NCBI GenBank assembly: GCA_963768175.1
Contig: CAVYGQ010000001.1
Span: 574,305 to 638,304, forward strand
Length of the DNA stretch: 64,000 nt
Origin: Candidatus Doudnabacteria bacterium
GTDB taxonomy: Bacteria; Patescibacteriota; Doudnabacteria; UBA920
Reading direction: 5' to 3'
Positions 4,791 to 59,286 of the stretch are shown here, piece after piece; position 1 is the first letter of the stretch; each line of letters opens with the position of its first letter. The translations under genes and the position numbers were made by a program. Below the pieces are notes generated by a model that was not told where the DNA came from, did not search any database, and saw only the letters and a list, made by a program, of their open reading frames with translations.

Positions 4791-5537
4791 GAAGAGGTGT
4801 CCCCTCTTCCAGTTTAAATTTATGTTATAATCATACATAATATAGACATGCGCTACCGCGATTATAAAACTTTTGCGTCCGGGAACTATTACCATGTCTT
4901 TAACCGAGGTAATGGCAAAAACGATATTTATTTAAAATCCGAGGATTATAAAATTTTTATTTATCGTTTGAGAGAAAATCTTTTCCCCGTTACCGAATTA
5001 AAAACCGCCCAATCCAAATCGGAATTTAAATATAAAAGAAAATTGTTGCCTGACAATGCCTTTTCCCTTATCTGCTATTGCTTGATGCCCAACCATTTTC
5101 ACTTACTAATTAGACAAGATAGGGACGTTAAAGTCAGCAAGTTAATTCAAAAACTTTGTACCGGCTACGCGGTCTATTTCCAAAAAAAATACGACCATAC
5201 CGGCCATTTGTTCCAAGGAGCTTTTAAGGCTATTCATATTGAAAATGAAAGCTACTTAATGTGGCTTTCGGCTTATATTCATCAAAACCCTGCGGTCGCC
5301 GGTTTAGTAAAGAACCTTGAAGATTACCCATACAGCAGTTACTTGGATTACATCGGCAAAAGAAATGAAAACTTGTGTTCCAAAGATGTTATCCTGGACA
5401 AATTTAAAAGCCCGGACGATTATAAAAAATTTGTTGAAGATAGCGGAGAATTAATAAAACAACGAAAAGAAATAGAGTCTTTACTTTTAGACTAAGCGCA
5501 GAACAGGGGACACCTCTGGAAGAGGTGTCCCCTGTTC
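4791..5537 (+). mobile_element. REP-RAYT-REP unit: IS200/IS605-like HUH tyrosine transposase flanked by GAGGTGTCCCCTC-type palindromes
   Basis: Hairpin GAAGAGGTGTCCCCTCTTC at ~4791-4809. Perfect palindrome GAACAGGGGACACCTCTGGAAGAGGTGTCCCCTGTTC at ~5501-5537. Confidence 0.7.
4848..5495 (+). CDS. REP-associated tyrosine transposase (RAYT; IS200-like TnpA, HUH family)
   Basis: 215 aa with the HuH motif MPNHFHLLI and a downstream Tyr region typical of Transposase_17/RAYT. Flanked by REP hairpins. Confidence 0.75.
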   Translation: MRYRDYKTFASGNYYHVFNRGNGKNDIYLKSEDYKIFIYRLRENLFPVTELKTAQSKSEFKYKRKLLPDNAFSLICYCLMPNHFHLLIRQDRDVKVSKLIQKLCTGYAVYFQKKYDHTGHLFQGAFKAIHIENESYLMWLSAYIHQNPAVAGLVKNLEDYPYSSYLDYIGKRNENLCSKDVILDKFKSPDDYKKFVEDSGELIKQRKEIESLLLD

Positions 5538-9744: not shown

Positions 9745-9788
9745 AAAAACAAAAATCACATTATTTAACGGCCGTTAAATAATGTGAT
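9745..9788 (-). terminator. rho-independent terminator of metK
   Basis: Perfect palindrome CACATTATTTAACGGCCGTTAAATAATGTG followed by a U-run on the minus strand. Confidence 0.6.
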
Positions 9789-9798
9789 TTTAAGCTGT

Positions 9799-11071: not shown

Positions 11072-11335
11072 AAAAAACCGCCTATCGGCGGGTTGTAAAA
11101 TTATCTTCCCCGCTCGGGGCTAGAAGTAGCACCTTTCGTATGGGGGTCCCCAAAAATTAGGAGCGCAATTTCCGTAATGCTTTACGGAAATGAGCACGGA
11201 TTTTTGGGGAGAGGAGCAACTGCGGAGAGCTAAGTTTCCGATTTTTATCGGAACGAAAGCTCGAAGCAAGTTGCGACGAGGTTGCTGGCAGGTCATTGGG
11301 CTAGATCCCTCACTGCACTCTTGATAAATTATTTT
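11072..11335 (-). promoter_or_regulatory. SAM-I (S-box) riboswitch with a greatly enlarged P3 region and an intrinsic terminator, in the metK leader
   Basis: Minus-strand RNA contains TTATCAAGAGTGCAGTGAGGGATCTAGCCCAATGACCTGCCAGCAACC and GAAAGGTGCTACTTCTAG core motifs, a P4 hairpin CCCCGAGCGGGG, then the terminator CCGCCGATAGGCGGTTTTTT. Confidence 0.7.
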
Positions 11336-13154: not shown

Positions 13155-13200
13155 ATGAGGACTGTCCTTTTCCGGGCAACCCCTGGTTAAGGACAGTCCT
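13155..13200 (-). terminator. hairpin terminator downstream of the LTD-protein gene
   Basis: 13-bp inverted repeat GAGGACTGTCCTT...AAGGACAGTCCTC followed by a U-run on the minus strand. Confidence 0.5.
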
Positions 13201-13225
13201 CTGCCAAGTTTCTGTTCAGTTAAAA

Positions 13226-14137: not shown

Positions 14138-14200
14138 AAGTTTTCCTATGAAGACGGTCTTCTGGGGCTGCCCCAGAAGACCGTCTTCAAACGCGATGTT

Positions 14201-17674: not shown

Positions 17675-17995
17675 GTCCCCTCCTTTCTCTCGGGGAATCA
17701 AAACCCTAAAATCAAGATACTGATTCCCCGAGAGGCAATTGTGTTGTATATTTTACTTCTGTTTTTATCTTTTTTCAACCCCATTAGAAACTTTATAAAA
17801 GTTCGGTTTTATTTTATTCATTATTTTTATCGGCAAAGCATTTGTTTTCAGTAAACCAAAGTTTAGGAAGTTTCTAACGGGGTCAACCACCATTTTCCTC
17901 CTACAAAAAAATGGGGGAATAAAACTGGTCATTAAAATAAGATAACTCATTTAACGACCAAATTTCTTCCCCCATTATTTGTTCAAAACTTCGGT

Positions 17996-18032
17996 CACAT
18001 TAAATAACGGCCGTTATTTAATGTGATTTTTA
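17996..18032 (+). terminator. orphan plus-strand intrinsic terminator
   Basis: Perfect palindrome CACATTAAATAACGGCCGTTATTTAATGTG followed by ATTTTT. No plus-strand CDS lies upstream. Confidence 0.4.
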
Positions 18033-21383: not shown

Positions 21384-21569
21384 AAGCATTTTATATCAAT
21401 AATAAGGCCTCTGTCAACCCCGTTAGAAGTCAAGCGCCAAAGGCGCTTGCCGATGCCCTTGGCGTCGGACTTCTAACGGGGTCAAGGGGAGTGATAAATA
21501 AAAAACCATGGCTCGTGCCAAGATATAATAGCATTATTTGAACTTAATTATCAACTGGCTTAACAATAG

Positions 21570-24978: not shown

Positions 24979-25911
24979 CTACACTTGGCACTTGGGACAA
25001 AAACTCCCTGTCCTTCCGCCTATTTTAGTTGCCTCGATGATACTGCCACATTTTTTGCACTTCTGCCCTTTGCGGCCGTAAACAAAATGGAACTTCCCCA
25101 TTTGCCCCCAGCTGCCGTCAGTGCGCACAAAGTCGCCGACACTGGATCCTTTGGCTTTTATAGCTTTAATAAGCACAAGCTTTATCCATTTATATATGGC
25201 TAATAATTCTTTGCCGCTCAACGATGAAACCTTACGCGTTGGCCTGACGCCGGCGTGGAATAAAATTTCATCGGAGTAAATATTGCCGATGCCCGCCACA
25301 AAATGGCTGTCCATAAGCAGTTGCTTAATGGAAATTTTTCTCTTGTTGACTTTTCGCGCGGCCGCGCGAAAAGTCAACAAGGTATATTTTTTATCCAACG
25401 GCTCGGGACCGTATTCCTGCAATTCTCTGACTCGATCAAGCTCGCTCTCGCGCACTAACTTTAAGTAGCCGAATTTCCGAATGTCGTTGAAATAAAGATG
25501 GCTACCGTCTGTAAATGTAAAAACCACGTGCGTATGTTTGGAAGGCAAAAGTTCCAGCGGCGCCGTCAGCTTATTTAGTAATCGAAACTTTCCGCCAGTT
25601 CTTTTCCGTAAAGCTTTGTCCTCAAAAATAAACTGCCCGGTCATTTTAAGGTGGGCCAGCATAAAAAACGGACCCGAAAGATTGAATATCAACAACTTCG
25701 CCCGACGCTTAACCGATATAATTTTTTTTCCTTTTAGTAAACTTATAAACTTATCAGCCGACCGCTTATCGGCTTTCCTGATATTACTGGCGACTCCCGG
25801 GCCGACGGCAACCATTTTTGGCGCGTTAACCACAACCGATTTTATTGTCCGGTTTTTTAATTTGCGGTTAAGCTCGCCGGCGATAGTTTGGACTTCGGGA
25901 AGTTCAGGCAT
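24979..25911 (-). CDS. fpg: formamidopyrimidine-DNA glycosylase
   Basis: MPELPEVQTIAGEL N-terminus, H2TH region, C-terminal CKKCG...CPKCQ zinc finger. Confidence 0.85.
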   Translation of the reverse strand: MPELPEVQTIAGELNRKLKNRTIKSVVVNAPKMVAVGPGVASNIRKADKRSADKFISLLKGKKIISVKRRAKLLIFNLSGPFFMLAHLKMTGQFIFEDKALRKRTGGKFRLLNKLTAPLELLPSKHTHVVFTFTDGSHLYFNDIRKFGYLKLVRESELDRVRELQEYGPEPLDKKYTLLTFRAAARKVNKRKISIKQLLMDSHFVAGIGNIYSDEILFHAGVRPTRKVSSLSGKELLAIYKWIKLVLIKAIKAKGSSVGDFVRTDGSWGQMGKFHFVYGRKGQKCKKCGSIIEATKIGGRTGSFCPKCQV

Positions 25912-27577: not shown

Positions 27578-27621
27578 CGACACTAATACACGAATTGCAC
27601 ACGAATGACACGAATACAAAG

Positions 27622-27658
27622 ATGCCCATTGCGTTGCGCAATGGGCATCTTTGTATAA
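27622..27658. terminator. bidirectional intrinsic terminator
   Basis: Perfect hairpin AAAGATGCCCATTGCGTTGCGCAATGGGCATCTTT between convergent genes. Confidence 0.6.
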
Positions 27659-30962: not shown

Positions 30963-31000
30963 TTGTTGATTTTTTGCGCGGCCGCGCAAAAAATCAACAA
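30963..31000. repeat. 38-bp perfect palindrome TTGTTGATTTTTTGCGCGGCCGCGCAAAAAATCAACAA
   Basis: Immediately upstream of the comEC start. A near-identical palindrome lies inside fpg at 25343-25380. Confidence 0.7.
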
Positions 31001-57858: not shown

Positions 57859-59286
57859 ATGAATAAAACTTTACCTATCGTGGCAATTGTCGGCCAGCCG
57901 AACGCCGGAAAATCCAGCCTGCTGAATAAAATCGCTAAGCGGCCGCTGGCCATAACTTCCGACGTGGCCGGAACCACGCGTGACCGCCAATACGCGGACA
58001 CTTCGTGGAACGGCGTTGATTTTACTTTGGTGGATACCGCGGGCCTGTCTTTAAACCCGGGCAGCGAGCTGGAATTAAGCTTGCTCAAACAAATTCAAAT
58101 CGCGTTGGATGAGGCCGACGCCATAATTTTGGTTGCCGATGGTAAGCAACCGGCCAGGGCAATTGACCAGAATATTTTAAAAAAATTCCGGCAGATAAAA
58201 AAACCGGTTATGCTGGCAATAAACAAACTGGACGGCTCTGCTTTGTGGAATGAAAAAATCGCGGAATTCAGCTCTTTGGGCATAAAAAATCTTTTTCCGG
58301 TAAGCGCACTTAACGGCCGGGGGGTCGGCGATTTGCTGGATTGTCTAACCGATCTTTTAAAAACCCACGCGCCTGAAAGCAGAGGTGTCCCCTCTGCTGC
58401 AGAGGGGACACCTCTGCCAGAAAAGTCGATCGCCGTCTCCATTGTCGGCAAACCCAACGTGGGCAAATCCAGCATCTTTAACAAAATTCTAAAAGAAGAG
58501 CGCGTTGTGGTCTCTCCCCTCCCGGGTACTACCCGCACGGCCATAGACAGCCAAATAAAAATTGGCGGGGTTGATTATACTTTTATAGACACCGCGGGCC
58601 TAAAGAAAAAAGAGTTCCGGCAGGAGCAGCCGGACATTTTTGCCGGCTTCCAAAGCTTTAAATCCATACGGCGCAGCGATATTTGTTTTTTTGTTATTGA
58701 CACCTCCGAGGAAATTACCAAACAGGACCAGCGCGTGGCCCAAGAAATTATCGCTATGCAAAAAGGCTGTATAATCTTAGCCAATAAATGCGACCTGCTG
58801 TCTCCTTCCCTCCCCCCTGGGGGGAGGGTTAGGGAGGGGGTACAAAAAAAAGATGTGATCGGCAAACCCAACGATAATCAATACCAAAATATCCGCGACT
58901 ACATAAGCCACCACTTCCCGTTCTTATGGATGTGCCCTTTGTTTTTTGTTTCCGGCCTCACGGGAGAAGGCTTAAAAGAAGCTGTTGATACCATCAAACC
59001 GATTTGGGAGCGCCGCCATAAAACAGTTGACGCCGAAGCGTTAAAATCATTTTTGAAAACGGTTCTAGAAAAAAATCCGCCCAAACTTTTGCGCGACCAA
59101 AAAAAACCAAAAGTCATTGGCCTCAGGCAAATCGCCACCAACCCCCCGATGTTTGAACTCCTCGTCAACCACCCCGCAGCCATTTCCAACCAATTCCGCA
59201 AATTTTTAGAAAACTCTATAACCAAATATCTGGACTTCTACGGCACGCCGATAACTCTAAGGCTCCGCGGCAAAGACAAAACATAA
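57859..59286 (+). CDS. der: ribosome-biogenesis GTPase Der (EngA) with two in-frame palindromic inserts
   Basis: Two GTPase domains (GQPNAGKSSLLN; GKPNVGKSSIFN) plus KH-like C-terminus. Inserts at ~58379-58418 (REP palindrome) and ~58808-58840 (CCCTCCCCCC/GGGGGGAGGG). Confidence 0.9.
   Translation: MNKTLPIVAIVGQPNAGKSSLLNKIAKRPLAITSDVAGTTRDRQYADTSWNGVDFTLVDTAGLSLNPGSELELSLLKQIQIALDEADAIILVADGKQPARAIDQNILKKFRQIKKPVMLAINKLDGSALWNEKIAEFSSLGIKNLFPVSALNGRGVGDLLDCLTDLLKTHAPESRGVPSAAEGTPLPEKSIAVSIVGKPNVGKSSIFNKILKEERVVVSPLPGTTRTAIDSQIKIGGVDYTFIDTAGLKKKEFRQEQPDIFAGFQSFKSIRRSDICFFVIDTSEEITKQDQRVAQEIIAMQKGCIILANKCDLLSPSLPPGGRVREGVQKKDVIGKPNDNQYQNIRDYISHHFPFLWMCPLFFVSGLTGEGLKEAVDTIKPIWERRHKTVDAEALKSFLKTVLEKNPPKLLRDQKKPKVIGLRQIATNPPMFELLVNHPAAISNQFRKFLENSITKYLDFYGTPITLRLRGKDKT

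Follow-up and report, generated by a model that had tools for sequence, protein, structure and literature searches.

How do two GC-rich palindromes come to lie in frame within der, the gene for the essential ribosome biogenesis GTPase Der (EngA), in a member of Candidatus Doudnabacteria? The gene occupies positions 57859-59286, on the plus strand, of a 64,000-nucleotide (nt) stretch of that genome (GCA_963768175.1, contig CAVYGQ010000001.1, positions 574,305 to 638,304), which is called the window below. An earlier note, made from the letters of the window alone, had pointed to one palindrome in the linker between the two GTPase domains (here element 1) and a second within GTPase domain 2 (element 2), and had read both as insertions. 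In our analysis, both features are very probably GC-rich hairpin repeats that have become fixed in der at two harmless sites, where they are translated as disordered loops. Element 1 is a dimer of a repetitive extragenic palindrome (REP) that also flanks a transposase gene in the window, and element 2 has its relatives in der orthologues and in viral contigs.

Two palindromic elements in der

The der gene is intact and encodes 475 amino acids (aa), with two GTPase domains and a KH-like domain. Pfam recognizes MMR_HSR1 twice and KH_dom-like at the C-terminus; the protein scores 413.6 bits against NCBIfam TIGR03594, 'ribosome biogenesis GTPase Der' (cut-off 306.7), and aligns over its full length with the solved Bacillus subtilis EngA (PDB 2hjg, E=3.5e-75). 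The G motifs are complete in both domains, with GQPNAGKS, DTAG and NKLD in domain 1 and GKPNVGKS, DTAG and NKCD in domain 2. This arrangement of tandem GTPase domains with G1-G4 and a C-terminal KH-like domain, within an uninterrupted open reading frame (ORF), places the protein in the Der/EngA family and confirms that both palindromes keep the reading frame, as the earlier note had it.

Element 1 (58379-58417, no strand assigned) is a perfect inverted repeat of 39 nt, or 13 codons. Its two perfect 19-nt arms (58379-58397 and 58399-58417), with 1 nt between them, are GCAGAGGTGTCCCCTCTGC and its reverse complement, and each arm forms a small hairpin on its own (GCAGAGG-TGTCC-CCTCTGC). The element is translated as S174-P187 (..SRGVPSAAEGTPLP..) in the linker between the two GTPase domains, at the place and with the peptide first described. 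None of the six frames of the dimer contains a stop codon, and frames +2 and -2 give one and the same peptide, RGVPSAAEGTPL, which is rich in Gly, Pro, Ser and Ala. With a length of 39 nt and all six frames open, the dimer can therefore be inserted into any gene with the frame kept and 13 residues added; the preserved reading frame in der is thus a built-in property of this stop-free unit of 13 codons and not a coincidence. The predicted RNA fold of element 1 has an energy of -40 kcal/mol (z=-8.2).

Element 2 (58808-58840) encodes S317-V328 (SLPPGGRVREGV), again as first described, and lies in GTPase domain 2 between the NKxD (G4) motif and the G5 region. It is composed of a hairpin (58808-58828, no strand assigned; CCCTCCCCCC-T-GGGGGGAGGG) and a G-rich tail on the plus strand (58829-58840; TTAGGGAGGGGG), and its right arm and tail together make up a four-G-tract motif, of the G-quadruplex type, on the sense strand. 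The predicted RNA fold of this element (-31 kcal/mol, z=-1.9) is unremarkable by energy alone; the z-score is weak because shuffles of so G/C-rich a stretch fold well too, and the case for element 2 therefore rests on comparison with other sequences.

A scan of the window for perfect hairpins (stems of at least 9, loops of at most 8) returned 23, and the only GC-rich ones (GC of at least 0.67) within an ORF were the two der elements. Rfam found no RNA family in or near der; its matches in the window are three transfer RNAs and an S-adenosylmethionine (SAM) riboswitch elsewhere.

To place the two peptides in the protein we used an AlphaFold2 model of Der, built from a 39-sequence alignment, with a mean predicted local distance difference test (pLDDT) score of 77.6. 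Four segments of the model fall below a pLDDT of 50, namely residues 34-39 (switch I), 176-187, 259-264 and 318-337. The second and the last of these coincide with the element-encoded peptides and have no predicted secondary structure, and the solved B. subtilis EngA has gaps opposite both peptides. The model fits a picture in which both peptides would be tolerated, disordered surface loops.

Relatives of element 1 at a transposase gene and in other genes

The earlier note had equated the linker palindrome with a REP flanking a transposase at 4791-5537, and this identification is borne out. Units at 4791-4809, 5501-5519 and 5519-5537 match the element 1 arm with two to three mismatches in 19, and between them lies a gene for a Y1 (HUH) transposase (4848-5495, plus strand; 215 aa; Pfam Y1_Tnp, E=1.4e-11), in which the HUH motif is HFH within LMPNHFHLLI and the tyrosine motif is YIHQNP. 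The unit 5' of the gene (4791-4809, plus strand) is a single copy, GAAGAGGTGTCCCCTCTTC; the 3' repeat (5501-5537, no strand assigned) is a dimer, GAACAGGGGACACCTCT-GGA-AGAGGTGTCCCCTGTTC, in the arrangement opposite to that of the der dimer. When the window was searched with the 19-mer at up to three mismatches, four further units were counted, the positions listed being 4791-4809 and the inverted pair at 5501-5537; the number expected by chance was 0 (100 shuffles). The units read G[A/C]AGAGGTGTCCCCTCT[T/G]C. For the source genome the REP count covers the window, in which der is the one dispersed locus besides the transposase flanks.

The transposase locus is kept in two relatives, L138 and L139 (89% and 72% identity), where the gene adjoins the transaldolase and LOG genes as it does in the window. 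The flanking palindromes are GGAAGAGGTGTCCCCTCTTCC in L138 and GGAAGAAGG-TTC/GAA-CCTTCTTCC in L139, and a 57% homologue at a different locus (L140) has GATGGGAGTCTTCCAGAAGACTCCCATC on both sides of the transposase gene. In all three, as in the window, inverted REPs flank both sides of the gene. At the position orthologous to 4791-4809, L138 has the single unit with a AATTTATGTTATAAT tail. Homologues of the transposase abound in Patescibacteria, as a rule with one contig to a cluster, and JGI gives several of them the name RayT; the only NCBIfam match of the window protein is REP_Tyr_transpos ('REP-associated tyrosine transposase', RAYT). Since the hairpin repeats bracket an apparently single transposase gene and co-vary with it, we recognize here the signature of a REP/RAYT system, and since the GTAG tag is absent we call it RAYT-like.

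A further feature accompanies the single unit at several loci. In the window (4791-4835) and in L070, L104, L105, L110 and L138, the unit GGAAGAGGTGTCCCCTCTTCC has a conserved AATTTATGKTRTAAT, resembling a -10 box, within 5-8 nt downstream. This composite of REP unit and AATTTATGKTRTAAT occurs at several Saccharibacteria and Doudnabacteria loci, also away from the transposase gene, and a looser variant of unit and tail was seen in L024 (Kerfeldbacteria).

The dimer is found in other genes and genomes as well. A scan of genome contigs with the 15-mer AGAGGTGTCCCCTST (unit form G[AC]AGAGGTGTCCCCTST[GT]C) returned at least 118 loci, most of them chance matches and eight of them informative; the metagenome scan used the exact 19-mer. 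In a set of related low-GC contigs the dimer lies in frame within five different genes: in DNA polymerase I (PolA, 946 aa; L128), between the 5'-3' and 3'-5' exonuclease domains (GRGVPSAAEGTPLP); in PurD (L129), within GARS_C (GRGDTFAAEVSPLQ); in IleRS (L103, a 1042-aa ORF; SGRGVSSVAEGTPLP); in a PfkB-family kinase (L062, a 318-aa ORF; GRGVPSATEGTPPP); and in a TIGR00375-family protein (L112, a 438-aa ORF; AEGAPLSRGVPSA). At L135/L130 the dimer has no host gene and stands untranslated between convergent genes. Der and the matches from the two scans together make seven dispersed dimer loci, of which six lie in frame within genes, and the intragenic dimers that have der's unit arrangement use the RGVPSAAEGTPL frame in four cases out of four. 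Single-unit matches in contigs of 63-66% GC (L131, L133, L134 and L136) and in the short L132 were discounted as unrelated or due to chance. In scans of viral contigs, neither the REP dimer nor the GTAG-type linker palindrome described below gave a match. At the borders of the dimers we found no convincing conserved target sequence or target duplication, only a G after TT in several cases.

Der loops in orthologues and other palindromes in the window

The comparison of Der proteins drew on the best 120 homologues from Candidatus Doudnabacteria and other Patescibacteria (orthologues carry P numbers below); loop lengths were taken from the 91 homologues that could be parsed, and a codon alignment was made for eight der genes, that of the window and seven orthologue loci. 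The protein alignment has hypervariable insertions and deletions at the inter-domain linker and, in domain 2, between NKxD and the G5 region, in what we call the GD2 loop. The linker is usually 21-22 aa long and measures 29 aa in the window. The GD2 loop is 32 aa long in the window, against 8 aa in one short-loop clade and 25-30 aa in the majority of Doudnabacteria; in relatives it is often non-palindromic, the usual form without a palindrome being ..KAAGTLGKN... The earlier note had put Der about 14 aa longer than the Escherichia coli protein at this second site. Most of this excess, over both E. coli and B. subtilis Der, belongs to a lineage-specific loop that is palindrome-free in relatives and older than the element, to which only about 4 aa net can be attributed.

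In the eight-gene codon alignment each orthologue has a different palindrome, or none, at both sites. The linker carries GTAGGGGCCGGCTTTAGCCGCCCG...CGGGCGGGCAAGCCCAGCCCCTAC in P0002 and P0004, GTAGGGGAGGGTTTGAAACCCTCCCCTAC together with a dimer of CGAGGGTTACCCTCGG in P0005, GTAGGGAAGGGTCTAGACCCTTCCCTAC in P0006 and GGCGGCCAGTGGCCGCC in P0012, and has no palindrome in P0003 and P0007. Several of the linker palindromes are GTAG-tagged, that is, of the classical REP type; such palindromes are present in P0005, P0006 and P0008. In P0021 and P0022 one cassette (..ARGDAPKGQRGR..) occupies both sites, and in P0007, P0013-P0017 and the entire short-loop clade both sites are free of palindromes. An alignment of this kind was the test that the earlier note had proposed, and its outcome, with relatives that lack these palindromes or carry others and an ancestral-looking sequence that is non-palindromic, supports insertion. 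The Der alignment contains a third hot spot of insertions and deletions, after GLSLNP in the switch II region of GTPase domain 1 (alignment columns 107-122); it is occupied by DNKTHSHTQTGQ in P0021, P0022 and P0061 and by KQKLKGLDKKGEEAIAG in P0026, and is empty in the window.

At the second site, the der genes of P0003, P0005 and P0012 carry TCCCTCTCCCCGATGCAGAGAGGGGGGAGGGTTAGGGAGGGG, placed at the codons of element 2 and in its frame, and separated from the window form by a 9-nt in-frame gap. To judge from these sequences, element 2 in the window and in the three orthologues looks like one inherited insertion that has been evolving since. In P0006 and P0010 the GD2 loop holds a related sequence, CCCCTCTCCC-CCTG-GGAGAGGGG-TTA-GGGGTGAGGG, the G-rich half of which also fits a four-tract G-quadruplex motif. 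The TTA of the two forms is read differently, as GTT AGG in the window type and as TTA GGG in the P0006 type; the two are therefore in different frames, which argues for separate insertions into one GD2 loop.

Both forms have counterparts outside der. The 21-mer GGGGGGAGGGTTAGGGAGGGG of element 2 is matched in an unrelated viral contig of 66% GC (L127), where it is intergenic, and its surroundings there, CCCTCCCCC-TCGA-GGGGGGAGGG-TTA-GGGAGGGGG, amount to a near-identical copy of almost the entire element. The 23-nt core of the P0006/P0010 element, GGGAGAGGGGTTAGGGGTGAGGG, has exact matches in 20 IMG/VR contigs (L141-L160) of 40-70% GC; in all 20 the sequence ttcccctc(t/g)ccc and a 4-nt loop stand before it. 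On these matches element 2 is a member of a widely dispersed hairpin/G-tract family of the type CCCCTCTCCC-N4-GGGAGAGGGG-TTA-GGGGTGAGGG, whose architecture it has in common with the GD2-loop elements of its orthologues; the copies in the IMG/VR contigs lie mostly outside long ORFs, whereas those in der are translated.

Other palindromes are present in the window. The Fpg/MutM gene (24979-25911, minus strand) contains a perfect 40-bp palindrome, CTTGTTGACTTTTCGCGCGGCCGCGCGAAAAGTCAACAAG, at 25342-25381; its translation, ..YTLLTFRAAARKVNKRK.., falls where the H2TH domain begins and does not obviously lengthen the protein. Between genes at 30963-31000, 5.6 kb from the Fpg copy, stands a related palindrome, TTGTTGATTTTTTGCGCGGCCGCGCAAAAAATCAACAA, likewise perfect; where the two copies differ, both arms of each copy are altered. 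A further family (..TCACATTAnnTAACGGCCGTTAnnTAATGTGA..) is represented by two perfect AT-rich palindromes, at 9752-9791 and 17995-18026, both of them intergenic, and long intergenic palindromes with terminator-like placement were noted at 14149-14189, 13157-13201, 27614-27656 and 21417-21482. The first of these (TGAAGACGGTCTTCTGGGGC-T-GCCCCAGAAGACCGTCTTCA) has the layout of a dimer with a hairpin within each arm, like the REP dimer in der. The SAM riboswitch (RF00162, 51.4 bits) lies at 11098-11330 on the minus strand; its match extends over 233 nt, against a model of 108 positions, and must therefore contain a large insertion.

Origin of the elements and their place among known systems

We propose that element 1 was placed in der most likely by the RAYT-like Y1 transposase of this genome. 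From what is known of RAYTs and of IS200/IS605, mobilization would involve recognition of the hairpin in single-stranded DNA, followed by cleavage and ligation. With a frame-neutral dimer, selection would need only to purge insertions at structurally intolerant places, and the repeated occupation of two der loops by different elements would mark these loops as permissive sites at which the inserts are presumably neutral. Palindromes already resident there may serve as targets for later insertions or replacements. REPs are known targets of other mobile DNA (PMC1525189), and landing on resident palindromes is therefore a reasonable, if putative, account of the two hot spots.

Several observations weigh against this reading. 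The net gain in length is about 8 aa for the 13-aa dimer and about 4 aa at the second site, the loop residues being partly replaced. There is no exact empty site, the nearest orthologue (87% identity) having another linker element, and the linkers are too diverged to define insertion boundaries or target duplications. Moreover, P0007 and P0008, whose der genes are 96% identical in DNA, both have linkers of 22 aa, and a 29-nt GTAG palindrome is present in P0008 only, a pattern not expected from simple insertion. On the side of the enzyme, the transposase scores 56.3 bits against the curated RayT model, under its 80-bit cut-off; no GTAG or CGTC tag adjoins the element 1-type units at any site examined; and three loci of 12-20 kb from relatives hold no REPs beyond the transposase flanks, which points to a low copy number. 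As for element 2, it has no second copy within the window, and we know of neither a published name nor a mobilizing transposase for the hairpin/G-tract family. It seems that insertion was accompanied or followed by the loss of neighbouring loop codons, or that it replaced an earlier element.

A more far-reaching form of this proposal is that the REP dimer may be adapted to intragenic life in the gene-dense, tiny genomes of the Candidate Phyla Radiation (CPR). It comprises 13 codons, is free of stops and encodes RGVPSAAEGTPL from either strand; all four intragenic dimers in der's arrangement use that frame, and six of seven dispersed loci are intragenic. Resident palindromes would then act as landing pads that successive elements overwrite, and loops of essential proteins would become fast-evolving cassettes. 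We put this forward tentatively, as a possibility that we do not favour.

That many orthologues have unrelated palindromes at these two positions would also be expected if the hairpins had been kept for their structure, the peptide being a by-product. A stable fold in der mRNA or DNA could be useful by causing a pause between the GTPase domains during co-translational folding, in mRNA decay, or as a switch between hairpin and G-quadruplex; the very stable predicted folds (-40 and -31 kcal/mol) and the sense-strand four-G-tract motif in element 2 and its relatives fit such a role. We nevertheless consider it unlikely, since many close and distant orthologues (P0007, P0013-P0017 and the short-loop clade) do without palindromes at either site and the identical dimer recurs in unrelated genes and between genes. 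Permissive loops are a simpler account of the recurrence.

The modest gains in length raise another explanation, namely that the palindromes arose on the spot, through intrastrand template switching (quasi-palindrome correction) or through gene conversion from other copies, overwriting loop codons and leaving the length about the same. This would account for linkers of 22 aa in both P0007 and P0008, without and with the 29-nt palindrome, and for net gains in the window that are smaller than the elements. The 40-bp palindrome in Fpg, which overlies a helix region that the protein normally has and brings no obvious gain in length, and the Fpg-type copies, whose differences are found in both of their own arms, likewise fit local creation. 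However, template switching cannot yield one 19-nt unit at the RAYT-like gene, at der and at six other loci in different genomes, nor a 23-nt core that is exact in 20 unrelated contigs, and conversion from dispersed copies still needs a repeat family, which makes it a variant of the insertion that we propose. The P0007/P0008 pair, for its part, is explained by recombination rather than by local creation. Their der genes (L002 and L137) hardly differ in nt 1-400 or beyond about nt 800, and the part in between has diverged by about 12%; this local divergence around the linker indicates that the pair is a recombination mosaic and not a clean pair of empty and filled sites. We also considered the P0007 linker as a decayed form of the P0008 palindrome and rejected this, as only about 55% of positions match (by eye) against a divergence of about 12% in the flanks. 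Creation of the palindromes in place is, on balance, improbable.

Finally, although palindromes can arise as chimeras in some assemblies, it is hardly conceivable that these are assembly or sequencing artefacts, or that der is a decaying pseudogene, given its uninterrupted ORF with all G motifs and the KH domain, the equivalent der elements in independent JGI, ENA and NCBI assemblies, and the form of element 2 common to P0003, P0005 and P0012.

Insertion of hairpin repeats into permissive loops of der has precedents, since translated intragenic palindromes have already been described. REPs, both singles and dimers and with GTAG or CGTC tags, occur inside ORFs of several phyla, where they add segments of 20-30 aa; many of the hosts are replication and repair genes, polA among them, and the location of the repeats in linkers or loops led to the proposal that they are neutral (Di Nocera, De Gregorio and Rocco, 2013; PMC3733652). 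The repeats described here share with these REPs the short (20-40 bp), GC-rich palindrome, often a dimer, that stands in frame and encodes about 10-30 aa, as well as the association with RAYT genes flanked by matching repeats and the decoration of PolA (L128 in our set). Like them, the der elements belong to repeated palindrome families and lie in frame within an ORF of which some homologues lack them. They differ in that element 1 has neither a GTAG nor a CGTC tag and in the host, a CPR bacterium that has few REP copies and whose genome measures about 0.95 Mb, the source contig being 949 kb long. A further difference, drawn from a small sample, is that the dispersed dimers are mostly intragenic, whereas classical REPs are overwhelmingly extragenic.

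In REPIN/RAYT systems a single-copy, vertically inherited Y1 transposase is reportedly flanked by hairpin repeats that it is thought to mobilize. The window and its relatives follow this plan in the inverted pairing of the repeats and in the co-variation of repeat and enzyme between lineages. They depart from it in that the units abut, with 1-2 nt between them and a total length of 39 nt, where those of a REPIN stand on either side of a spacer in an element of about 100 nt; the missing GTAG tag, the very few copies and a protein that falls below the NCBI RayT equivalog cut-off are further departures.

The classic longer case of palindromes in genes is that of the Rickettsia palindromic elements (RPEs), which are about 100-150 bp long and specific to Rickettsia. 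They are said to be selfish and to lie in frame in genes that stay functional, essential ones included. The resemblance to RPEs that the earlier note had drawn holds for behaviour, in that selfish palindromes stand in frame in a functional gene and add surface peptide segments in disordered loops, and does not extend to family membership, which is excluded on size alone (39 and 34 nt here). RPEs moreover are not known to have an associated transposase and are presumably unrelated in sequence. As in-frame insertions at surface-exposed positions of a functional protein, the der elements work like RPEs without being RPEs.

What is new is therefore not the translated palindrome as such. It lies in the host, which belongs to the CPR, in the repeated occupation of two der loops by several families of elements, in the frame-neutral 39-nt dimer, and in the untagged REP with its mostly intragenic spread in a small sample. 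We found no report of intragenic REPs in the CPR in the literature searched, the coverage of which is incomplete, so that their absence from earlier work is unproven.

Taken together, these findings add the CPR to the groups, so far Rickettsia and a few free-living phyla, in which selfish palindromes are translated within essential genes; its minimal genomes are where the least tolerance for such passengers would be expected. With independent families of elements in two loops, the der genes of Doudnabacteria provide a natural series that could be used to study how repeat insertion creates and renews loop sequence, and to date REP activity. Such cassettes also inflate apparent divergence and create spurious insertion and deletion signatures in alignments of CPR marker proteins.

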